Shown: positions 8,750 through 47,271 of the stretch, piece after piece | Position numbering within the stretch: the first letter of the stretch is position 1 | Layout: each line of letters starts with the position of its first letter | Origin: an uncultured Mycoplasmatota bacterium | Lineage (GTDB): Bacteria > Bacillota_I > Bacilli_A > RF39 > UBA660 | Length of the DNA stretch: 62,896 bases | Assembly (NCBI GenBank): GCA_948466315.1 | Contig: CAOJZZ010000003.1 | Span: forward strand, 1-62,896 | Direction: 5' to 3' | Notes under the pieces: model-generated | Databases searched by the model: none | What the model saw: the letters and a program-made list of their open reading frames with translations, nothing else | What the model was told of the DNA's origin: nothing | Program-made: the position numbers and the translations under genes

Positions 8750-8881
8750 TTATCTAAATTGGCAACAAGAACCACATTGAACATTACTTACAGTATTTTC
8801 CTCAGAACAAGAATATTCAGGTCTATATGTATGTTTATAAATATGATGATTAATTATTCTTGTATGAATAGGACAAACATG
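8750..8881 (-). CDS. cotD: 3' half of interrupted CotD-like spore coat gene (HVCPIHTRIINHHIYKHTYRPEYSCSEENTVSNVQCGSCCQFR*)
   Basis: No start codon or RBS of its own; His/Cys-rich; continues the 17868-18074 ORF in frame when joined at CA; resembles B. subtilis CotD (VPHIHPQHTTNVNHQHFQHVHYFP). Confidence 0.85.
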   Translation of the reverse strand, partial: HVCPIHTRIINHHIYKHTYRPEYSCSEENTVSNVQCGSCCQFR

Positions 8882-8904
8882 TGTGTGCCCTTTTTTGATA
8901 GACT
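8857..8904 (-). repeat. attR-like junction (element arm AGTCTATCAAAAAAGGGCACACA, core CA at 8880-8881, cotD 3' arm)
   Basis: The 19-bp sequence tgcccttttttgatagact (8886-8904) recurs at 13739-13757; it starts 2 bp past the recombinase stop codon. Confidence 0.85.
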
Positions 8905-8906
8905 TT

Positions 8907-10469
8907 TTATTTACTAAAAGAAATCTTTATATTTATAGTTTTATCTTCAAATATTTCAATTCTATCAATTAAATTGATTATTAACTCTCTACTAGGTTCT
9001 TTCATGGATAAAAATTTATTAATATACTCGTTAATCATTTTATTTTTAGATTCTTCATTAATGTTATCATTAATACTATTATTTAACTCACTATATCTTT
9101 TTTGTTTTATATTTAGTTCATTTTCTAATTTTACTCTTACTCTTTCAAATTGTTCTTCAGTTATTTTCTTATTTAACTTATCAATATAAATAATATCTAA
9201 ATTATCATTTATTTGCTTAATGTCGTTAGTTAGTCTTTCTAACTCTTTTTTATTATTTAATTTATTATCTTCAGTTAAATTATTTAATACATTATTTTTA
9301 ATTTTATCTTTATTAATATAATTTAAGCAGATATTAGTTAATGAATTGATTATAACTTTCTCTAATTCATCATAGTTATTAGAATGAGTTGTACAAAGTT
9401 TTTGTTTCATATAAGTCCTATAATAATTGCAAATTGTATAACATCTATTATCTTTTTTTCTTCTGGATTGTATGGATATTCGATGTCCACAATTACCACA
9501 ATATAATAACCCATCTAATAAATGAATCTCTTTTTTTTCATTTCGCCCCTTATTTTTAGGCATTCTTTTTTGAACTTCATAAAATATTCCTTTATCTATA
9601 ATTGCTTCATGAGTATTTTCTACAACTATATAATCATTGGGATTATTTTTAATCACTTTTTTCACTTTATAATTAACTTTACTTCTTCTATTTTGTACCA
9701 TATCACCAATATACATTCTATTAGTTAAAATATCTCTTATGGTTTTTGAATGCCACTCTCCATATTTTAAATTGTAGTTATTTTTCCATTCAAAGTTATA
9801 GTATTGTGCTGGGGTTTTTATTCCTTCATTTGTAAGTTGTTTGGCTATTTTAAAGAATGATAAACCTTCTAAACACATATCAAATATTCTTTTAACAACA
9901 ATTGCTTGTTCTGGATTTATTACTAAATGATTTTTATTATCTTTATCTTGATCATATCCAAACGGAGTTCTTCCTCCAACCCATTTTCCTTCTTTCATTT
10001 TTGCTTTTAAACTAGATTTTATTTTTTTAGATATATCTTTAGCATACATATCATTCATAATAGCTTTAAATGGTGCAATGTCATTATTAGAATTATCTAA
10101 AAATGTATCTATATTATCAGTAACAGCTATATATCTAACATTATGTTCTGGAAAATACTTTTCGATTAAATTACCAGTACCAATATAATCTCTTCCAAGT
10201 CTTGACATATCCTTAGTAATAACCATATTTATTTTACCTAATTCAATATCAGTTAATAATCTATTAAAATCAGGTCTTTCAAAATTTGTTCCACTATATC
10301 CATCATCAATATAAATATCATATACTCTTAAATTATTTTCTTTAACATATTGAAGTAATAAGCTCTTTTGATTTGTAATACTCTCACTTTCTAAAGTTTT
10401 ATCATCATCTTCCCTAGATAATCTTATATAAAGTCCAACATTATATATCTTATTTAAACTCTCTAACAA
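8907..10469 (-). CDS. Large serine recombinase (module A)
   Basis: YIRLSRED catalytic Ser motif, DDGYSGTNFERP, KDMSRLGR, recombinase domain, LLYCGNCG zinc ribbon, coiled coil. Confidence 0.97.
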   Translation of the reverse strand: MLESLNKIYNVGLYIRLSREDDDKTLESESITNQKSLLLQYVKENNLRVYDIYIDDGYSGTNFERPDFNRLLTDIELGKINMVITKDMSRLGRDYIGTGNLIEKYFPEHNVRYIAVTDNIDTFLDNSNNDIAPFKAIMNDMYAKDISKKIKSSLKAKMKEGKWVGGRTPFGYDQDKDNKNHLVINPEQAIVVKRIFDMCLEGLSFFKIAKQLTNEGIKTPAQYYNFEWKNNYNLKYGEWHSKTIRDILTNRMYIGDMVQNRRSKVNYKVKKVIKNNPNDYIVVENTHEAIIDKGIFYEVQKRMPKNKGRNEKKEIHLLDGLLYCGNCGHRISIQSRRKKDNRCYTICNYYRTYMKQKLCTTHSNNYDELEKVIINSLTNICLNYINKDKIKNNVLNNLTEDNKLNNKKELERLTNDIKQINDNLDIIYIDKLNKKITEEQFERVRVKLENELNIKQKRYSELNNSINDNINEESKNKMINEYINKFLSMKEPSRELIINLIDRIEIFEDKTINIKISFSK

Positions 10470-10639
10470 TTCTTACCTCCTTCTAGAGATAAATAAGCAC
10501 ATGATGATGGTACCTCAAATTTTTTATTCTTACAAATTATTTGGATATATTTTTTAAGTTCCTTACTTAAAACTTTTATAAAAATATCATTTATATCATT
10601 ATTTTCATTATAGATATAATTAATTCTGTAATTATCCAT
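10463..10639 (-). CDS. Small protein coupled to recombinase A (MDNYRINYIY...), candidate directionality factor
   Basis: RBS GAGGTG; overlaps the recombinase start; homologous ORF at 15943-16107. Confidence 0.7.
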   Translation of the reverse strand: MDNYRINYIYNENNDINDIFIKVLSKELKKYIQIICKNKKFEVPSSCAYLSLEGGKNC

Positions 10640-10673
10640 AAATTTTGTACACCTCATTTAAACTTATGGATAA
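10632..10673. repeat. 10-bp inverted repeat TTATCCATAA/TTATGGATAA spanning the RBS and start codon of the small ORF
   Basis: Arms at 10632-10641 and 10664-10673; same arms at 16100-16140. Confidence 0.8.
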
Positions 10674-11096
10674 ATCACTAGTTTTAGTAATACTAAATCG
10701 TATAATATTTAAATTACACACATATTTAGTATTACTTATAAGCATTCGCTCTCTTTCTAATTATCATAAACATCATCTCCTTTTTGCATGATGCATGATA
10801 CCTCCACTAAGAAATTGAGTCAAGTCATAAAGTATAGAAAGTTTTATCTATCATCCTAAAAATATTCATAATTTAATAAATTATAAAACAGCAGGATAAG
10901 AAAATTGTGTATCAATACATAGTTTTCCTTTTAAAATAAAGAAAACTATATACACAATTCTTATTTCGTACTTACAAAATTCATCCTACTATGTAGGATG
11001 GTATTAAGGAAATACCCTTATTTTATAATAATTTATGCCATAAAAAAACATCCTAAAATTCTTAAATTAATAAAATTTATAGGATGATTAAATTTT

Positions 11097-12005
11097 TTAC
11101 TTAATATTTTTAACACTATCAAATGATGATATATAATCACTTACCCAATTATCAACAACAGACTCATCAATATGCAAATTACCTTGTCCAGTACCTAAGT
11201 TATGATTTATTTTTCTAGTTCCATGAAAATCACTACCTCCACTCATATACAGTTTTCTATCGTTACAAACACTTACTAAATAATCAGATTGTTCTTTTGT
11301 AAAAGTTGTATAAAAACACTCCAATCCATCTAATTCATAATTATTTATTATATTTAATAACTCATTTGCTATATTAGGAGAATAAGCAAAAGTATGTGCT
11401 AAAAAGGCAAGTCCTCCTGAATTATGTATCATTTGTATTGCTGTTTCTAAGCTAGGAAACAATGATGATTCATCAACATATAATGGACTTTTAGGATTAT
11501 ATACTTCATTCCTAGTAAATCCACTAGCTGTATTTATCGATTCTTGATTTAAGAAAAATTTATAATTTTCAGGATGTTTTTTTATTTCAATAGCAAATGC
11601 TGGTCTACAAGATTCAACTTTTGGATCAAATTTAATATTATTTTCATCAAATATTACTCCTATGGCATTATACCTATTTTTTATTAGATCATATTCTTTT
11701 ATTTGTTTTTGTTCAAATGAAAGTACATTAGCATCTAAAAATTTCTGCATAGTTTCTAAATCAAAACCATAACCTAATACCTCTATTGTTTCTCCCTTGT
11801 AAGTTGTAGTTATTTCAATTCCTGATATTATTTCTCCTTTAAACCTATATCTTATATTAGAATTTTGTAATTCAAAATGAGCTTGTATTGTATTATGATC
11901 AGTTATTGAAAGCAAACTCAAATTTAATTTTTGTGCTTCACTTAAAAGTTCATCTACACTAGAACTTCCATCAGAATATGTAGTATGTGAATGAATATCT
12001 ACCAT
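11097..12005 (-). CDS. PHP-domain phosphoesterase
   Basis: DIHSHTTYSDG, TDHN, GIEI, LAH, GGSDFHG metal-binding motifs. Confidence 0.92.
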   Translation of the reverse strand: MVDIHSHTTYSDGSSSVDELLSEAQKLNLSLLSITDHNTIQAHFELQNSNIRYRFKGEIISGIEITTTYKGETIEVLGYGFDLETMQKFLDANVLSFEQKQIKEYDLIKNRYNAIGVIFDENNIKFDPKVESCRPAFAIEIKKHPENYKFFLNQESINTASGFTRNEVYNPKSPLYVDESSLFPSLETAIQMIHNSGGLAFLAHTFAYSPNIANELLNIINNYELDGLECFYTTFTKEQSDYLVSVCNDRKLYMSGGSDFHGTRKINHNLGTGQGNLHIDESVVDNWVSDYISSFDSVKNIK

Positions 12006-12032
12006 GTATAAAACCTCCTTAAAATTAATATC

Positions 12033-12776
12033 TTATTGTATTTCAAAATTTAATAATTCCTCACAAATCTTTTCATATAAGTCTTGTTCATGTTTAATAG
12101 TATCAATTAAAAACATTTTATCATTTTCATATTCTTTTAAACCTCTCATATAATAAGGTTTATCATCATCTAATACAATAAATGGCATAATATTATTTCT
12201 TAAGCATTCTTTAAACATAATAATTCTTCCAACCCTGCCATTTCCATCTCCAAAGGGATGAATTTTCTCAAATTTATAATGAAAATCAATAATATCTTCT
12301 AAAGTAATATTAGTTTTTGCATTATATTCAAAAACTAATTTATCAATTTCTTTTTCTACATCTTCTGGTGCAGTTGTATTAATAACATTAACAAGACCTA
12401 TCATATTAGGAACTATTTTAAATCCTCCAACATTATATCTAGGATTTTCTTCATCACTAGTATTTCTTTTTAATATCTTATTCATTTTGATAATCATTTC
12501 TTTAGATAACTTATTATCAACATTATCTAACATATAATCAAATAATTTAAAATGATTCTTAGATTCAGTTAAATCATCTAATTTTATCAAATCATCACTC
12601 TTAGGAATAAAAGATGAAGTATCAAATATGGCTTCAGTCTGATCACTGGTTAACCTGCTACCTTCTATCTTATTTGAATTATAGGAAAAATTAACTTGTG
12701 AATAATGATATATATTTCCTTTAAACTTTGATTCTTTTTGGCTAATTAATTCTCCTTTTATTTTAGTTATATTCAT
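12033..12776 (-). CDS. Fic-domain protein
   Basis: HPFGDGNGRVGR active-site motif; N-terminal SNKIEG inhibitory motif (class II Fic). Confidence 0.93.
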   Translation of the reverse strand: MNITKIKGELISQKESKFKGNIYHYSQVNFSYNSNKIEGSRLTSDQTEAIFDTSSFIPKSDDLIKLDDLTESKNHFKLFDYMLDNVDNKLSKEMIIKMNKILKRNTSDEENPRYNVGGFKIVPNMIGLVNVINTTAPEDVEKEIDKLVFEYNAKTNITLEDIIDFHYKFEKIHPFGDGNGRVGRIIMFKECLRNNIMPFIVLDDDKPYYMRGLKEYENDKMFLIDTIKHEQDLYEKICEELLNFEIQ

Positions 12777-12801
12777 TAATCTTACATCCTTTCATTATTT
12801 A

Positions 12802-13626
12802 CTAATCATTATTTATATTTTTCATATACTCATATACCATATTTTTATAATCCAAAATAAATTTATTTTTTATTCTTTCTTCAACACAATCTAAATCTAA
12901 ATAGGGAGCTATATCTTCAATCTCTGTCAAAAGAAGTGTTCCATCCTTAAGTTTAATAAAGTCAATTCTTTGAATACCATAATAATTTTCATTTAATTTA
13001 GAAAATTCATCTGCTAATTTCATTTCATTTTCATTTGGTTCATATTTTATTGCATCGGGATAAATTGGAACTTTACTTGGAATAAACTCTAGTGCATATT
13101 CGAATTTATCTTTTATATAATAAAATTGTACCTCAGATTGAAATTCCATATATGGTTGAATTACATATGAATCAGTAAAGTTTTTTTCTAATTGTTGTTT
13201 GTCTACTACCATTTGTCCTATTCCATCATAACTATCTTTAAGCTTTAATAAAATTTTATTACATTTATCTAGTATTTGTAAATCTTCAATATTATCGACA
13301 GTTGGAATGACGGGATAGCCATTTTTATATAAACGAACAAGATATTCTTTGCTCTTTCCATCATATTTACCATCAAAATTAATACGTGGGAGATTTTTAT
13401 TAATGATTCTTAGTCGAAAATTAGATTTCTCTTTAATGGTTTCTATATTCGCATCAGTATCCCAAGTATTCCTTAACAAAAAAACATCAAATAAAGATTC
13501 AAGTTTTTCATCATAATTCTTATCAACTATCGCTACCTTATGACCATCTTTTTGAAAAGCTCTAGCAAGCCATATATCTTCTAATTTTTCATCTGCATCT
13601 ATATTACTAATCATTAAAATATTCAT
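12802..13626 (-). CDS. ATP-grasp fold (RimK/glutathione synthase-like) protein
   Basis: KEYLVRL..GYPVIPT, LKLKDSYDGIG, YVIQPYM, RIDFI, LLTEIEDIAPYL. Start refined to ATG 13626. Confidence 0.7.
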   Translation of the reverse strand: MNILMISNIDADEKLEDIWLARAFQKDGHKVAIVDKNYDEKLESLFDVFLLRNTWDTDANIETIKEKSNFRLRIINKNLPRINFDGKYDGKSKEYLVRLYKNGYPVIPTVDNIEDLQILDKCNKILLKLKDSYDGIGQMVVDKQQLEKNFTDSYVIQPYMEFQSEVQFYYIKDKFEYALEFIPSKVPIYPDAIKYEPNENEMKLADEFSKLNENYYGIQRIDFIKLKDGTLLLTEIEDIAPYLDLDCVEERIKNKFILDYKNMVYEYMKNINND

Positions 13627-13709
13627 AAGTATCACCTTCTATTTCATTATATCACACAAAAAGACATTTAAATGCCTTTAAATTTGTACTTATTCTCTCT
13701 TTAAAACTT

Positions 13710-13757
13710 AGTCTGTCATAAATTATCACACTTGTCCTTGCCCTTTTTTGATAGACT
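13710..13757 (-). repeat. Internal attP-like junction between modules A and B (AGTCTATCAAAAAAGGGCAAGGA-CA-AGTGTGATAATTTATGACAGACT)
   Basis: 48 bp with 23-bp arms around CA at 13733-13734; 4 mismatches to the attP reconstructed from the outer ends. Confidence 0.85.
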
Positions 13758-14077
13758 AAATTTCTATTATTCCATTTACTATATCAATAATTTCTTCTAA
13801 TTCATCTTCACATAGTTTTTCAACAAACGATAATTTTCTTACTTTAAAATCTACACTTCTAACATATTCACATAAAAATGAACCTTTTATTTTTTTAGTA
13901 TTTAAAAATTAAGAATTTTTTTGTATTTGTAGTTATAGGACATATTACAACTAGTCCTGTGTATTTGTTATAATTATCTTTACTAATAACTACTGCTGGT
14001 CTTAGTCCTGTTTGTTCATAACCAATTGTTGGTGCAAAATTCATATAACAAATATCTTATTGTTTTGGTAGATACAT
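13756..14077 (-). pseudogene. mazF: MazF/PemK toxin pseudogene
   Basis: MYLPKQ*DICYMNFAPTIGYEQTGLRPAVVIS...VVICPITT, then a frame break before GSFLCEYVRSVDFKVRK; premature TAA at codon 7. Confidence 0.88.
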
Positions 14078-14336
14078 TAATAAAACTTTTCCTTTCCTAA
14101 GTCTTCTCCCCAATCAAAAGCCTCAATACTACCTTTTTCTTCATCAGGTAATTTATTAAATTCTTCAAATCTTTCTTCTAATGTTTTATGTTTTATAGTT
14201 TGTTTTGATATTATAATTTTATCATTCTCTTGTATTAAATCTACTTTATCATTTGTCTTTAAATTAAGCGATTTTAAAATGCTACTTGGATTCTAATTCC
14301 ATCAGAATTTCCCCATTTTTGAAGTCTTGCTTCCAC
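14077..14336 (-). pseudogene. mazE: AbrB/MazE antitoxin pseudogene
   Basis: MEARLQKWGNSDGIRI followed by a 1-nt deletion; the shifted frame continues SSILKSLNLKTNDKV...FDWGEDLGKE; its stop overlaps the mazF ATG. Confidence 0.85.
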
Positions 14337-14402
14337 AATATCATATCAATTCATTCATAGTATATACAAAGTTTATACATTCGCCCTATTATTATATCCA
14401 AC

Positions 14403-15956
14403 TTAACCAAAACTTACTTTAATATTAACAGTTTTATCTTCAAATATTTCTATTCTATCAATTAAGTTAATTATTAATTCTCTACTAGGTTCTTTCATAG
14501 ACAAGAATTTATCAATATACTCTATTATAATTTTATTTTTTGATTGCTCACTTATAGTATCATTAATGTTATTATTTAACTCATTATATCTTTTTTGTTT
14601 TATGCTTAGTTCCCGCTCTAATTTTAATTTCACTCTCTCAAATTGGTCTTCGGTTATCCTTTTATTTAATTTATCAATGTAAATAGCATCTAAATTATCA
14701 CTTATTTGTTTAATATCAGTAATTAATATTTCTAACTCTTTTTTATCATTAACCTTATTAACTTCATCTAAATTATTTAATACATTATTTTCGATTTTAT
14801 CTTTATCAATATATTTAAGGCACATCTCAACTAAAGAATTAATTATAGATTTCTCTAACTTATCATAATTATTAGAATGAGTACTACACTTTTTTTCTTT
14901 CATATAAGTTCTATAATAATTACAAATTGTATAGCACCTATTATCTTTTTTCCTTCTCGCAAGAACAGATATTCTATGTCCACAGTCACCACAATATAAC
15001 AGTCCATCTAATAAATGATTCTCTTTTTTAGTACTTCTTCCTACATTTTTAGGTATTCGCTTCTGTACTTGATAAAATGTATCTTTATCAATAATAGCCT
15101 CATGTGTATTTGAAACTATTATATAATCACTTTCTTTATTTTTAACAACTTTTTTTACCTTATAATTTACTTTACTCCTCTTATTTTGAACCATATCTCC
15201 TATATATATTCTATTAGTTAAAATATCTCTTATCGTTTTAGCATTCCATTCTCCATATTTTAAATTATATTTTTTCTTCCATAAAAAACTATAATATTGA
15301 GCTGGTGTTTTAACACCTTCATTAGTTAGAATTCTTGCTATTTTAAAAAATGACAAACCCTTCAAACACATATCAAATATTCTTTTAACAACAATAGCTT
15401 GATTCTTATTTATAACTAAATAATTCTTATCATTCTTATCTTGTCTATATCCAAACGGTGCTCTACCCCCTACCCATTTTCCACACTTTTGTTTTGCTCT
15501 CAAACTAGATTTAATCTTTTTTGATATATCCTTAGCATACATATCATTCATTATTGCCTTAAAAGGTGCTATATCGTTATTAGAACTATCCAAAAACGTA
15601 TCAATATTATCAGTAACCGCTATATATCTAACATTATTCTCTGGAAAATACCTTTCAATTAAATTACCTGTGCCAATATAATCTCTACCAAGCCTAGACA
15701 TATCTTTAGTAATAACCATATTAACTCTACCTAATTCTATATCTTTTAATAGTTTATTAAAACCAGGTCTATCAAAATTAGTTCCTGAATAGCCATCATC
15801 TATATAAATATCATAAACATCTAAATTATTCTCTTTTACATACTGTAGTAATAAACTCTTCTGATTAATAATACTCTCACTCATAGACCCTTTATCATCA
15901 TCCTCACGAGATAATCTTATATAAACACCAACACTATATTTTTTATTTAAAAACAC
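14403..15956 (-). CDS. Large serine recombinase (module B), close paralogue of 8907-10469
   Basis: YIRLSRED, DDGYSGTNFDRP, LLYCGDCG; long identical stretches shared with recombinase A. Confidence 0.97.
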   Translation of the reverse strand: MFLNKKYSVGVYIRLSREDDDKGSMSESIINQKSLLLQYVKENNLDVYDIYIDDGYSGTNFDRPGFNKLLKDIELGRVNMVITKDMSRLGRDYIGTGNLIERYFPENNVRYIAVTDNIDTFLDSSNNDIAPFKAIMNDMYAKDISKKIKSSLRAKQKCGKWVGGRAPFGYRQDKNDKNYLVINKNQAIVVKRIFDMCLKGLSFFKIARILTNEGVKTPAQYYSFLWKKKYNLKYGEWNAKTIRDILTNRIYIGDMVQNKRSKVNYKVKKVVKNKESDYIIVSNTHEAIIDKDTFYQVQKRIPKNVGRSTKKENHLLDGLLYCGDCGHRISVLARRKKDNRCYTICNYYRTYMKEKKCSTHSNNYDKLEKSIINSLVEMCLKYIDKDKIENNVLNNLDEVNKVNDKKELEILITDIKQISDNLDAIYIDKLNKRITEDQFERVKLKLERELSIKQKRYNELNNNINDTISEQSKNKIIIEYIDKFLSMKEPSRELIINLIDRIEIFEDKTVNIKVSFG

Positions 15957-16107
15957 GTTTATCTCCTTCTAAAGATAACAAAAATCTATTCTTTTCCTTA
16001 CTAATCATATCAATATATACACTAATTTCTTTTTTTAAAACCTTAATAAAAATATCATTTATATCCTCCTTACCATTAAATATATAAGTAATTTTATAAT
16101 TATCCAT
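15943..16107 (-). CDS. 54-aa protein coupled to recombinase B (MDNYKITYIFNGKEDINDIFIKVLKKEI...), candidate directionality factor
   Basis: Manual translation; AGGAG RBS; homologous to 10463-10639; absent from the ORF track. Confidence 0.7.
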   Translation of the reverse strand: MDNYKITYIFNGKEDINDIFIKVLKKEISVYIDMISKEKNRFLLSLEGDKRVFK

Positions 16108-16140
16108 AAATTCAAACTCCTTATTTAACTTTATGGATAA
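16100..16140. repeat. Inverted repeat TTATCCATAAA/TTTATGGATAA over the RBS and start codon of small ORF B
   Basis: 11-bp arms; the loop sequence differs from the module A copy. Confidence 0.8.
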
Positions 16141-16230
16141 AATCCCAGTTTTATAATTTAAATTACTAAAAAATAATAAATATTTATATTAATCATTCTC
16201 ATATAATTCACATACTCATTAAAAATAATA

Positions 16231-16752
16231 CTACTTCCTAGTATGTCCTATTTTACCCTCTAAAAGATAATTATCCAAACTAAAGTTATCATCTACTCTT
16301 CCAAATGAATTTAAATAATTCTTAAAAGAATCATTATTAACTTCTACTACACCACTAGTAAGTAAATTAGATAAAAGATTCCTATCTATTTTATCCCCAG
16401 GCCATTCCACTAATTTTACAAGATTACTATTATCTTTCCTCACAAACTGGGAAAAACTCGGATTAATTAATAATCTCTTCATATTAGAATTAGTCATATA
16501 CTCAGCTATCAAAATAGTATGATCAACATACACTAAATCATTCAAATCTATTTTATAAGTATGAACCCCAGAAATATCTTGAACTATTCTATATTCTATT
16601 TGATTAGCCAAATATTTACAAAAGCCATCAAATTCCAAAACCTTATCAGCTAACTTTTCCCTCTCATCAAAAACTATTGCTTTTATATCTGCTTCTTTGT
16701 CCTTGCCTTCAATATTTAATATAGAATTATAAAAATCATATAAACTATTCAT
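16231..16752 (-). CDS. Hypothetical protein with a possible Cys-His-Asn/Asp (papain/transglutaminase-like) arrangement
   Basis: GFCKY ... DHTILI ... LINPSFSQF spacing. Confidence 0.4.
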   Translation of the reverse strand: MNSLYDFYNSILNIEGKDKEADIKAIVFDEREKLADKVLEFDGFCKYLANQIEYRIVQDISGVHTYKIDLNDLVYVDHTILIAEYMTNSNMKRLLINPSFSQFVRKDNSNLVKLVEWPGDKIDRNLLSNLLTSGVVEVNNDSFKNYLNSFGRVDDNFSLDNYLLEGKIGHTRK

Positions 16753-16880
16753 ATAATCACCATAATTATTATATCTTAAAAATACATTTTTTATCTATAT
16801 ATAAAATTTATTCTTATTTATCTTAATTTAGTTTACAAATAATTATCGTTTAACTAATTATTATAATTACTAAAAACCAC

Positions 16881-16909
16881 TTGAATTAATAAAAAAATAA
16901 AGTTATAAT
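16881..16909 (+). promoter_or_regulatory. sigA-type promoter of gmk
   Basis: TTGAAT-17-TATAAT, 22 bp upstream of the ATG; AAGGAG RBS. Confidence 0.65.
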
Positions 16910-16931
16910 TATCAACACAAAGGAGAATATT

Positions 16932-17624
16932 ATGGGAAATATTAAACAAAAAACTAGAGGAGACTTAATTATCATTTCAGGTACCACTTGTGCAGGTAAA
17001 GGTACCATCATTAGAAAACTTTTAAAAAAACATAATAATATTAAATTATCAATCTCTTATACTTCAAGGGCTATGCGTGAAGGAGATATTGATGGAGTAG
17101 ATTATTATTTTATTTCCAGAGAAGAGTTTGAAGAAAAAATCAAAAATAAAGATTTTTTAGAATATGCTACTGTACATGGTGAATATTATGGTACACCAAA
17201 AAAAGAAATTGAAAACATATTAGAAACTGGTACTGATGTCATACTAGAAATCGAAGTACAAGGGGCTAAACAAATCAAGGAAATGTTTCCTGAAACAATT
17301 TTAATCTTTATATTGGCACCTTCATTTGAAGAAGTAAAAAGAAGAATAAAAGCTCGTGGTGTAGAAAACAACGAACAAATAATCAAAAGATTTAAATCAG
17401 CCTATCAAGAAATAAATGAAATACCAAAGTATAACTATGTAGTCGTTAATGATGAAATTGATAATGCTTTATTAAAAATCGAATCTATTCTAATAGCTCA
17501 AAAATGCCGAGTAGACAGAATTGAGGAGATTGCTGTTGAAAATGAAGAAGAACTATTACATGAGTTTATTATGGATAAAGAATTTGATAATACTCCGATA
17601 AATTATAATAAGGATACCAATTAG
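16932..17624 (+). CDS. gmk: Guanylate kinase
   Basis: SGTTCAGKGT P-loop variant, SISYTSRAMREGDIDGVDYYF, YYGTP, ILEIEVQGA, YNYVVVND. Confidence 0.95.
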   Translation: MGNIKQKTRGDLIIISGTTCAGKGTIIRKLLKKHNNIKLSISYTSRAMREGDIDGVDYYFISREEFEEKIKNKDFLEYATVHGEYYGTPKKEIENILETGTDVILEIEVQGAKQIKEMFPETILIFILAPSFEEVKRRIKARGVENNEQIIKRFKSAYQEINEIPKYNYVVVNDEIDNALLKIESILIAQKCRVDRIEEIAVENEEELLHEFIMDKEFDNTPINYNKDTN

Positions 17625-17842
17625 TACCCTTATTTTTATTAGTCAAGTATGTCCTAAATCTATATAAATGATAGCCTATCATAATTTTAAGACTCATCAT
17701 TTTTTTAATATTATTCATTAATTTCAAAACTTAATAGTTTTTTACAAGTTAATTCAAACCAATCATGTTCATTCTTTATAATTTAAAAAATCTAATACTT
17801 CTTATCAAAATGACTTTAGTTTGATTTTCTCTTTCTATATTT

Positions 17843-17890
17843 AGTCTATCATAAATTATCACACTTGTGGAACTTCATGTACGAAAGTTC
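17843..17890 (-). repeat. attL-like junction (cotD 5' arm, core CA at 17866-17867, element arm AGTGTGATAATTTATGATAGACT)
   Basis: The arm matches 13710-13732 with 1 mismatch and ends in TGATAGACT, the inverse of AGTCTATCA at the other end. Confidence 0.85.
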
Positions 17891-18074
17891 TGTGAATACA
17901 TTTTTCTTGAACACCTTCATTTATTGAGTTAGAAAAATTCCCACCTTGCATCATCTGTTCCCCACTATAATTCATCATATTAATATCAACATTCATATCA
18001 TTTTCTACAACATTATTGTTACCCATAACAGAAGAATCAAAATCAAAATTTTGAGCCATATTTTGATCAAACAT
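17859..18074 (-). CDS. cotD: 5' half of interrupted CotD-like spore coat gene (ends ...CIHRTFVHEVP, then element-derived QV*)
   Basis: AGGAGG RBS; EKCIHRTFVHEVP aligns with CotD CEHHTFSKTIVP; the element arm supplies TGA TAA. Confidence 0.85.
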   Translation of the reverse strand: MFDQNMAQNFDFDSSVMGNNNVVENDMNVDINMMNYSGEQMMQGGNFSNSINEGVQEKCIHRTFVHEVPQV

Positions 18075-45795: not shown

Positions 45796-47271
45796 ATGGA
45801 TAAACAAGAAATTATTAAAAATATCGCCAAAAGAAGTGGCGGAGACATTTATCTAGGTGTCGTTGGAGCAGTAAGAACAGGTAAATCGACTTTTATTAAA
45901 CGTGTTGTTGAAACATTGATTGTTCCTAATATAGAGGACGAGTATGAAAGAAAAAGGGCCTTAGACGAAATCCCTCAAAGTGCTGCTGGAAAAACTATCA
46001 TGACAACTGAACCCAAATTTGTACCAAACAACGCAGCCAAAATAAAAATAGATGACTTTTCATGTAACATACGTCTAATTGATTGTGTTGGTTATATGAT
46101 TGATAAAGCCATGGGCGCAACCGATGAAAACGGACCTAGAATGGTAAAAACACCTTGGTATAGCGAGGAAATACCATTTATTGAAGCAGCTGAAATTGGT
46201 ACTGAAAAAGTAATTACTGATCATTCGACTATTGGTATAGTAATTACGACTGATGGCTCAATTGGTGAATTCGATCGAAGTGACTATCTAGAAGCTGAAA
46301 ACAGAGTAATAGAAGAACTTAAAAGCTTAGGAAAACCATTTATAGTAATACTAAATTCTACTCACCCTACACTACCAGATACTGAAAAGCTAGCTGAAAG
46401 TCTAAGATCAGAACACAATGTTCCAGTATTACCAATCAGTATAGAGGCTATGAACGAAAAAGATATGTACGAAATACTAAGAGAAGCATTATATGAATTC
46501 CCAGTACTAGAAATAAAAGTAAATATGCCAGAATGGATTGCCATTCTAAATCCAGATCACCCAGTCAAAAAAAGCTATATTAACTCAATAAAAGAAAGTA
46601 TTGTTCAAATAGATAAATTAAAAGATATAGAAAATATTACCAAACATTTTTTAGAAAATGAAATGATCGAAAAAAGTTATCTATCAGAAGTTGATCCAGC
46701 AACAGGAATAATTACTGTAACCATAACAGCACCTGCCGATTTATACAACAAAACCCTAACAGATATCATCAAAATAGATGTTAAAAATAAAGCTGATTTA
46801 CTGGCCTTATTCCAAGAATTTAACATTGCCAAAAAAGAATATGATCAAATTAAATACGCCCTAAAAATGGTTAAACAAACAGGCTATGGAGTAGCTACCC
46901 CATCCATTGAAGATATGAAACTAGATAAACCAGAAATAATAAAACAAGGACCACGCTATGGAGTAAAACTAAAAGCAGTAGCACCATCAATTCACATGAT
47001 AAGAGTAGATGTAGAATCAACATTTGAACCTATAATCGGTAGCGAAGTTCAAAGTAAAGAATTAATCGATTATCTCATGAAAGATCAAGAAACAAAGCCA
47101 AACGAGATATGGAAAAGCGAAATATTTGGACGCAGTCTAGATTCTATAGTTCAAGAAGGGATACAATCAAAAATTAATTTAATGCCAGATAACATTCGTT
47201 TCAAACTTCAAACAACATTATCAAAAGTTGTCAATAAAGGATCTAATAATATGATTGCTATAGTAATATAA
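45796..47271 (+). CDS. spoIVA: Stage IV sporulation protein A
   Basis: GVVGAVRTGKSTF, IMTTEPKF, DCVGY, TDGSI, IWKSEIFG. Start refined to ATG 45796. Confidence 0.98.
   Translation: MDKQEIIKNIAKRSGGDIYLGVVGAVRTGKSTFIKRVVETLIVPNIEDEYERKRALDEIPQSAAGKTIMTTEPKFVPNNAAKIKIDDFSCNIRLIDCVGYMIDKAMGATDENGPRMVKTPWYSEEIPFIEAAEIGTEKVITDHSTIGIVITTDGSIGEFDRSDYLEAENRVIEELKSLGKPFIVILNSTHPTLPDTEKLAESLRSEHNVPVLPISIEAMNEKDMYEILREALYEFPVLEIKVNMPEWIAILNPDHPVKKSYINSIKESIVQIDKLKDIENITKHFLENEMIEKSYLSEVDPATGIITVTITAPADLYNKTLTDIIKIDVKNKADLLALFQEFNIAKKEYDQIKYALKMVKQTGYGVATPSIEDMKLDKPEIIKQGPRYGVKLKAVAPSIHMIRVDVESTFEPIIGSEVQSKELIDYLMKDQETKPNEIWKSEIFGRSLDSIVQEGIQSKINLMPDNIRFKLQTTLSKVVNKGSNNMIAIVI

Follow-up and report, generated by a model that had tools for sequence, protein, structure and literature searches.

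In the 62,896-nt stretch of DNA analysed here (the window), a cotD-like spore-coat gene of an uncultured gut spore-former is interrupted by two elements, each with its own large serine recombinase, and a further attachment site of the attP type lies between them. Serine integrases choose their sites at synapsis according to half-site type and are regarded as recombining strictly attP with attB. The locus raises the question of how two elements came to share one insertion point, and how the interrupted gene could be restored. We propose, with a probability of roughly 0.8, that the insert is a two-element array in which one element (module A) was added at the junction between the 3' part of cotD and the P' arm of a resident element (module B). 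By analogy with known elements, the array may be released whole in sporulation. Below, the P and P' arms are marked A or B after their module and joints are written with a slash, as in cotD-3'/P'B.

Anatomy of the interrupted gene

When the flanks of the insert are joined in silico at the TG core (8881 to 17868, minus strand), an uninterrupted CotD-like ORF of 112 aa results; the coding sequence is interrupted by the insert, and precise excision would restore it. That only recombination between the outer attL and attR restores cotD, as stated in a preliminary description of the locus, is correct as sequence logic. An exact look-up of the reconstituted product returned no gene on record. The CotD orthologues of relatives are intact (that of G021, for example, has 112 aa and is 65% identical), and 8 of 11 orthologues match the Pfam family Spore-coat_CotD, with a best E-value of 1.6e-6; the window's own protein, at 17.6 bits, stays below the Pfam gathering score of 22. 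The insertion point falls in the most conserved motif of CotD, HEVPHVCPI, and judged by their sequences both modules are members of one family of small elements that insert at a single CA/TG in the stretch coding for this motif. On contig L084 (G290 C8) the cotD 3' piece occurs twice with equal score, at 1916-2044 and 16871-16999, inverted and 15 kb apart, with a distant recombinase gene between the two pieces.

The host genome is a metagenome-derived bin of 1.5 Mb, 71% complete and with 3.5% contamination. Since the ATPase domain of SpoIVA is encoded in the window (45796-46503, E 7e-110), we take the host to be an endospore former; the hit confirms an endospore programme in a small genome of 27% G+C. 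Spo0A_C had no match in the 71%-complete genome.

The coordinates of all features are collected in Table 1. Modules A and B have the same orientation and the same gene order at the recombinase end. Both recombinases match PF00239 (Resolvase), PF07508 (Recombinase) and PF13408 (Zn_ribbon_recom) above the gathering scores, and in both the RLSRED (serine) and SRLGRD motifs are conserved. Exact matches between the modules reach 32 nt at most, within the recombinase genes. A small ORF (53-64 aa) overlapping the recombinase start has a counterpart in the G025 element and in all stand-alone copies of module A; profile searches with Pfam, PADLOC and NCBIfam gave no family match. By analogy with GirX (PMC5595907) and SprB (PMC5499854), it is a candidate directionality factor. 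Inspection by eye of the sequence upstream of the small ORF gave no convincing match to a sigma-E or sigma-K promoter.

Table 1. Features of the interrupted cotD-like gene and its two modules (window coordinates).
Feature	Coordinates	Strand	Basis or remark
cotD-like 3' fragment, residues ~69-112	8753..8884	-	98% match to reconstituted CotD
Outer junction cotD-3'/P'A (attL, window orientation)	8857..8904	.	TG core 8880-8881
Module A, 4.85 kb	8882..13733	-	95.7-98.6% nucleotide identity to L108-L114
Large serine recombinase A, 520 aa	8907..10469	-	Pfam domains; 92% identical to that of the G292 element
Small ORF, 64 aa, overlaps start of recombinase A	10463..10657	-	53% identical to module-B copy
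PHP-domain phosphoesterase, cargo	11097..12005	-	Pfam PHP, E 2e-9; NCBIfam matches all below cut-offs
Fic-domain protein, candidate anti-phage defence cargo	12033..12776	-	Pfam Fic; PADLOC PDC-S04, E 2.7e-99
277-aa cargo protein, no significant family match	12802..13635	-	274-aa gene in stand-alone A copies
Internal hybrid attP-type site PA/P'B	13710..13757	.	TG core 13733-13734; left arm from A, right arm from B
Module B, 4.13 kb, resident element	13734..17867	-	At cotD-5' in 10/10 same-species contexts shown
Decayed mazE/mazF-type pair (AbrB-type antitoxin / PemK toxin)	13760..14350	-	tblastn with intact G025 pair
Large serine recombinase B, 517 aa	14403..15956	-	Pfam domains; 82% identical to A
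Small ORF, 54 aa, overlaps start of recombinase B	15943..16107	-	53% identical to module-A copy
173-aa cargo protein, no family match	16231..16752	-	Module B
Guanylate kinase (gmk), cargo	16932..17624	+	TIGR03263, 232.6 bits, cut-off 160.45
Outer junction PB/cotD-5' (attR, window orientation)	17843..17890	.	TG core 17866-17867
cotD-like 5' fragment, 71-aa truncated product	17859..18074	-	17868-18074 joins the 3' fragment into the 112-aa ORF

The cargo differs between the modules. In the mazEF pair of module B, each gene is disrupted by one stop codon and one frameshift (tblastn), so both are pseudogenes; the G025 element carries the same pair intact at the same position. Many cotD elements of other genera share the Fic gene of module A (PDC-S04), conserved at 86-91% nucleotide identity; in further copies of the element the cargo includes a NERD-domain gene or a mazEF pair that is intact. 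The family may mainly carry defence-type cargo. The gmk gene of module B is the single above-cut-off match in the 71%-complete bin; in 10 relatives gmk lies elsewhere on the chromosome. The place next to fpg is taken by gmk in G021 and by a pyruvate kinase gene in this genome, and the synteny is too variable to decide. If the gmk of module B is the sole copy, the module could not be lost from the germ line, which would explain its fixation.

A hybrid site inside the insert

The 48 bp at 13710-13757, AGTCTGTCATAAATTATCACACTTGTCCTTGCCCTTTTTTGATAGACT, make up a full site of the attP type. The left arm (13708-13735) recurs at 17841-17868 with 27/28 identity and a spacing of 4133, and its right arm (13727-13757) recurs at 8874-8904 with a spacing of 4853; the repeat families D20 and D17 are these arm repeats. 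A 26-nt pattern of the P arm, allowing up to 3 mismatches, occurs in just two places in the window, the sites at 13710 and 17843, against an expectation of 0.00 from 100 shuffles, and across the whole 1.5-Mb genome the arms are found solely at the three junctions. The arms have at most 20 exact bases in common. The preliminary description had reported a P-P' site of 48 bp with a CA core at 13733-13734, dividing the insert into module A (4,853 bp) and module B (4,133 bp), each with a recombinase of its own. The present analysis confirms both points.

We rebuilt the outer attP in silico from the P arm at 17843-17867 and the P' arm at 8882-8904. It is self-complementary at 34 of 48 positions, compared with 14 of 48 for attB. 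The sites are those of a serine-recombinase element, with an imperfect inverted-repeat attP of ~40-50 bp, hybrid attL and attR junctions and a 2-bp core. Because TG alone is common to all sites, it is supported as the crossover dinucleotide (CA on the gene strand); TGA replaces TGT in 3 of 16 attR-type sites of relatives and in 5 of 7 stand-alone copies of module A.

The rebuilt outer attP and the internal site differ at 4 of 48 positions, exactly as the preliminary description had noted. One is an A/G difference in the P arm; the other three, beside the core, are GTG in the outer attP and CCT in the internal site (on the gene strand, CAC and AGG). At every position the internal site's P' arm agrees with the family consensus, as judged from 16 attR-type and 22 attL-type junctions of relatives. 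CCT is the commonest variant beside the core, present in 10 of 24 sites including the window's two. GTG was seen at three sites, in the window and in G264 and G292, whose recombinases are nearest to A, and otherwise also in the stand-alone copies L108 and L113; this variant of P' accompanies A-type recombinases only. Conservation within the P' arm is lowest at the three bases next to the core, so the AGG/CAC difference is ordinary lineage variation and no sign of altered specificity.

The two arms of the internal site can be traced to different modules. The left arm carries a G that marks module A (AGTCTGTCAT); this base is rare, and it is the same in the stand-alone copies L108-L114. Since the stand-alone copies have it too, the left arm is module A's own P arm. 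The right arm is the one that is joined to cotD-3' in strains containing only module B. On these markers the internal site is a hybrid, made of the P arm of A and the P' arm of B joined at TG.

Strain polymorphism and the origin of the array

To place the modules among their relatives, 301 genomes of the family were surveyed with a threshold of at least 60% identity for the recombinase clade. About 30 of them carry a recombinase of the clade, in one copy each except for the window's genome. Among the 28 clade-bearing genomes whose surroundings were examined, the recombinase sits between cotD halves wherever the contig allowed. Some 26 related genomes have a single element in cotD, with one P' at cotD-3' and one P at cotD-5'; these elements measure 2.8 to ~8 kb and have no phage genes, and none of the ~26 contains an internal P/P' site. 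A degenerate pattern of the P/P' junction, which covers ~80% of the known arm variants, had 0 matches in genome_contigs, metagenome_contigs and viral_contigs, and the same scans found neither another array nor an assembled circle. Stacking is rare, since neither the relatives nor the contig scans show another P/P' junction.

In a maximum-likelihood tree, recombinase A has a short branch and groups with those of G292 and G264 (92% identity). No other recombinase is more than 83% identical to B, which is placed, on a long terminal branch, with those of G025, G241, G126 and G304 (the starred five-row group). The AU test rejects A and B as sisters (p 0.03), and by these sequence comparisons the two modules are of independent origin. 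Stand-alone copies of module A were identified as contigs encoding exactly the same Fic protein (L108-L114). They sit in the cotD genes of other species and match the whole of module A at 95.7-98.6% nucleotide identity; the host flanks are 68-75% identical to the window or not alignable, and the alignments stop at window 13734/13735, the TG core. Because near-identical copies that end at the core sit in divergent flanks, module A must have moved between species recently.

The load of large serine recombinases in the 1.5-Mb bin, at least 9 full-length genes, is unusually high for the genome size. A second recombinase clade, widespread across the family, has two copies in the same assembly (G000, C22:14033-15574, minus strand, and C52:2703-4244, plus strand). 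Their identity to recombinase A is 57%, and the two copies share 87% of their nucleotides. Each adjoins the C-terminal piece of a different LysM-repeat ORF (KCYIK[ST]VSGDTL...), and this clade seems to target LysM-coding sequence.

Contexts from the same species were located through the neighbouring rpoZ gene and have flanks 99.9-100% identical to the window. Module A adjoins cotD-3' in four samples (L116, L120, L124 and L125) and in one variant (L122). In L117 (SRR36555131) and L121 (SRR36555103), with flanks 100% identical to the window, cotD-3' is joined directly to module B; three further rpoZ-context contigs end before or at the junction. On the other side, the truncated cotD-5' product has the gmk end of module B alongside in all 10 contexts shown, and module A in none. 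Neither an empty site nor module A alone was found among the same-species contexts examined. With B at every cotD-5' shown and A absent from L117 and L121, we take B as the fixed resident and A as a variable add-on. Strains with a single module, a point on which the preliminary description had made its proposal depend, exist beside array strains, and each unit is found alone elsewhere with the same boundaries (A in L108-L114, B in L117 and L121).

The junction in the B-only strains reads GGACAAACA-TG-TCCTTGCCCTTTTTTGATAGACT-AAATTTC, as predicted for cotD-3'/P'B. It is not an assembly join, because its k-mers are absent from any array strain. The three junction types differ only in which arm flanks TGT on each side. 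The P' arms have a 19-bp stretch in common, and a deletion through it would leave TGTG. Observed is TCCT, which places the exchange within TGT, as expected of a serine recombinase. Loss of A by recombination in this shared stretch was rejected accordingly, since TCCT is retained on its left side in the B-only junction. The array itself is real, since an independently assembled contig (L115, ERZ15143663) crosses from B over the internal site into A at 99.3% identity.

Several contigs of the species deviate locally. In L122 (SRR29686424), whose flanks are identical, identity to A falls to ~90% after the first 330 nt, and L115 has a patch of differences at window 10392-10749. The variant bases are mostly those of neither A nor B. 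These stretches are either further element variants in the slot or related elements mixed at contig ends; as both come from the ends of contigs in assemblies with low coverage or k=31, they were not counted as repeated integration. The L119 contig (SRR22050017) ends exactly at ...ACAAACATGTG, where the A-type junction and an empty attB part ways (T follows in the former, G in the latter), and may reflect a mixed population that includes reconstituted cotD. Two same-species contigs (99.9% identical) from two samples, L098 (1-71) and L099 (1-30), differ in sequence from window 16780-16851, a stretch immediately before the gmk promoter, and stop at that point; they may represent a variant of module B that lacks the 173-aa gene.

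We propose that a circular module A, carrying the attP PA/P'A, met a module B flanked by the hybrid junction cotD-3'/P'B. One precise site-specific exchange between this attP and the attL-type junction would produce the outer cotD-3'/P'A and the internal PA/P'B. A is favoured as the newcomer by the decayed mazEF pair of B, the long branch of recombinase B and the near-identity of A to copies in distant hosts; the fixation of B and the recent spread of A give the event the same direction. The preliminary description had likewise placed the integration of A at the flanking junction of resident B, and the stand-alone copies of A, the B-only strains and the position of B at 10 of 10 cotD-5' ends support it, with the qualification that a loss of A would give the same sequences.

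Such a loss is the core of a reversed polarity, in which the array is ancestral and the B-only strains lost A through recombination of the outer cotD-3'/P'A with the internal site. It would generate the junction sequences of L117 and L121 just as well, and would directly show the internal site to be active. We regard it as rather unlikely: A is 96-99% identical to the copies in distant hosts, suggesting a recent arrival, and B contains decayed genes and a recombinase on a long branch. Identity of the flanks to the window is 99.9-100% in B-only and array strains alike, so they hold no phylogenetic signal either way.

The observed arrangement would also follow exactly, by sequence logic, if circle A had fused with an excised circle B (attP × attP) and the resulting 9-kb circle had entered an empty attB through PB/P'A. 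The last step of this route is a canonical attP × attB reaction; its first step, however, uses a likewise non-canonical pair, and B would have to be excised in a cell that keeps dividing. Neither an empty-site nor an A-alone context was seen in the species, and a B-free intermediate would be costly if the gmk of B is the sole copy. Fusion of circles is in our view improbable. Gain, loss and circle fusion all need one exchange between site types that model integrases hardly use.

Two other explanations deserve very little credence. A tandem duplication in place, followed by divergence and cargo replacement, would account for the shared orientation and recombinase-end gene order, but recombinase A is 92% identical to those of other genera and only 82% to B, the whole of A occurs alone elsewhere at 96-99% identity and B-only strains exist, so that the tree, the AU test (p 0.03) and the stand-alone copies reject it. 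A chimeric assembly, built from two strains or from a chromosome plus an excised circle, might be expected in an incomplete, slightly contaminated metagenome bin with related elements in many co-resident species, but PA/P'B would exist in no single-element strain or circle, the exact matches between arms (at most 20 bases) and between modules (32 nt) are short, and k-mer logic and the independent contig L115 reject it.

If A was added to resident B as proposed, the parallel of skin, SPbeta and gin suggests that one or both recombinases, together with the small ORF, would in the mother cell recombine the outer junctions with each other. This would release the 8,986-bp array as one circle and restore cotD; the internal site would be a bystander, or would let the modules leave singly. 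The developmental excision and the enzyme responsible, like the direction of the event, are what we infer from these parallels and from the history of the modules. The products can be predicted base by base: ...GGACAAACA-TG-TGGAACTTCATG for reconstituted attB, ...TCTATCATAAATTATCACACT-TG-TGTGTGCCC for the circle of the whole array, ...TCTGTCATAAATTATCACACT-TG-TGTGTGCCC for circle A, ...TCTATCATAAATTATCACACT-TG-TCCTTGCCC for circle B, and ...TCTGTCATAAATTATCACACT-TG-TGGAAC for a chromosome with A only. Tentatively, and with somewhat less than even confidence, we speculate that an occupied cotD is an open landing pad. Related elements would join, and perhaps leave, the hybrid junction on the cotD-3' side of the resident by attP × attL-type exchange, which model serine integrases refuse, and so build up a cargo array, defence candidates included, of which the mother cell would rid itself in a single step.

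Comparison with known systems

Inserts in sporulation genes that are excised by a large serine recombinase include skin in sigK, SPbeta in spsM, vfbin in spoVFB, vrin in spoVR and gin in gerE (PMC4191935, PMC5499854, PMC5595907, PMC5025042). Like skin, SPbeta and gin, the insert described here lies inside a mother-cell-type sporulation gene whose frame is restored by joining at a short core; its modules pair a large serine recombinase with an adjacent small ORF, as in GirC/GirX and SprA/SprB, and like gin they have no phage genes. Unlike in skin-type elements, two complete elements are present in tandem, with an internal attP-type site, and the target is a cotD-like gene. Term searches of the gin and SPbeta papers found no mention of a tandem case or of a cotD target. 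Excision in the mother cell is a property of skin, SPbeta and gin, and for the modules here it is a prediction. The locus indicates that skin-like elements in sporulation genes can stack. A sporulation gene may be a low-cost harbour for growing cargo arrays, because it is repaired only in the terminal mother cell.

Composite SCC islands at rlmH in staphylococci, mobilised by the large serine recombinases Ccr, also form tandem arrays with internal att sites (PMC13739063). As in the array here, the internal sites separate cassettes that each have a recombinase of their own; excision in alternative units is possible, and the array records the order of integration. SCC inserts at the 3' end of rlmH and the gene is kept; each insertion regenerates a target-like repeat, and stacking is expected. 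At cotD, by contrast, the sites have only 2-3 bases in common, each junction is a true B/P hybrid, and the gene remains disrupted for as long as any part of the array is in place. Insertion is into a cotD-like gene and not into rlmH, and recombinases A and B are not Ccr orthologues (CcrA/B or CcrC), since they score ~110 bits with the NCBIfam Ccr models, for which the cut-offs are 900.

Tandem accretion has also been described for ICEs and genomic islands, as in ICESt1/CIME and in phage-ICE tandems (PMC13651849 and its refs 24 and 25). There too, an incoming element recombines with an att site flanking a related resident, and the resulting composite has an internal att site and moves whole or in parts. 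The composite at cotD fits this pattern, with two complete elements in direct orientation and an internal att site that has one arm from each. ICE accretion systems use tyrosine integrases, and their attL and attR keep the full core. In SCC and ICE tandems alike, the junctions keep a full target-like core.

Serine integrases are prized for genome engineering because they are held to recombine attP with attB only. Recombinases A and B resemble the phiC31, phiBT1 and Bxb1 enzymes in domain architecture and in an imperfect inverted-repeat attP of ~48 bp (PMC3836970, PMC1470463), and likewise in a crossover at an asymmetric dinucleotide. In vitro, integrases of the phiBT1 type give ~90% product for attP × attB or attL × attR, and phiBT1 gives at most a few percent for other site pairs (PMC3836970). 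Unlike this preference, the sequences at cotD record the product of an exchange between an attP-type and a hybrid site. As model integrases yield only a few percent with non-canonical pairs, the proposed reaction is either rare or this family is laxer. The substrates and products are all recorded in nature, in B-only strains, stand-alone copies of A and array strains, and they offer a ready-made set of sites, with two enzymes 82% identical to each other, for testing the strictness of the attP × attB rule. Tandem accretion and elements in sporulation genes are both already known; here they are combined, in that a B/P hybrid junction within a broken gene has itself been used as a target.
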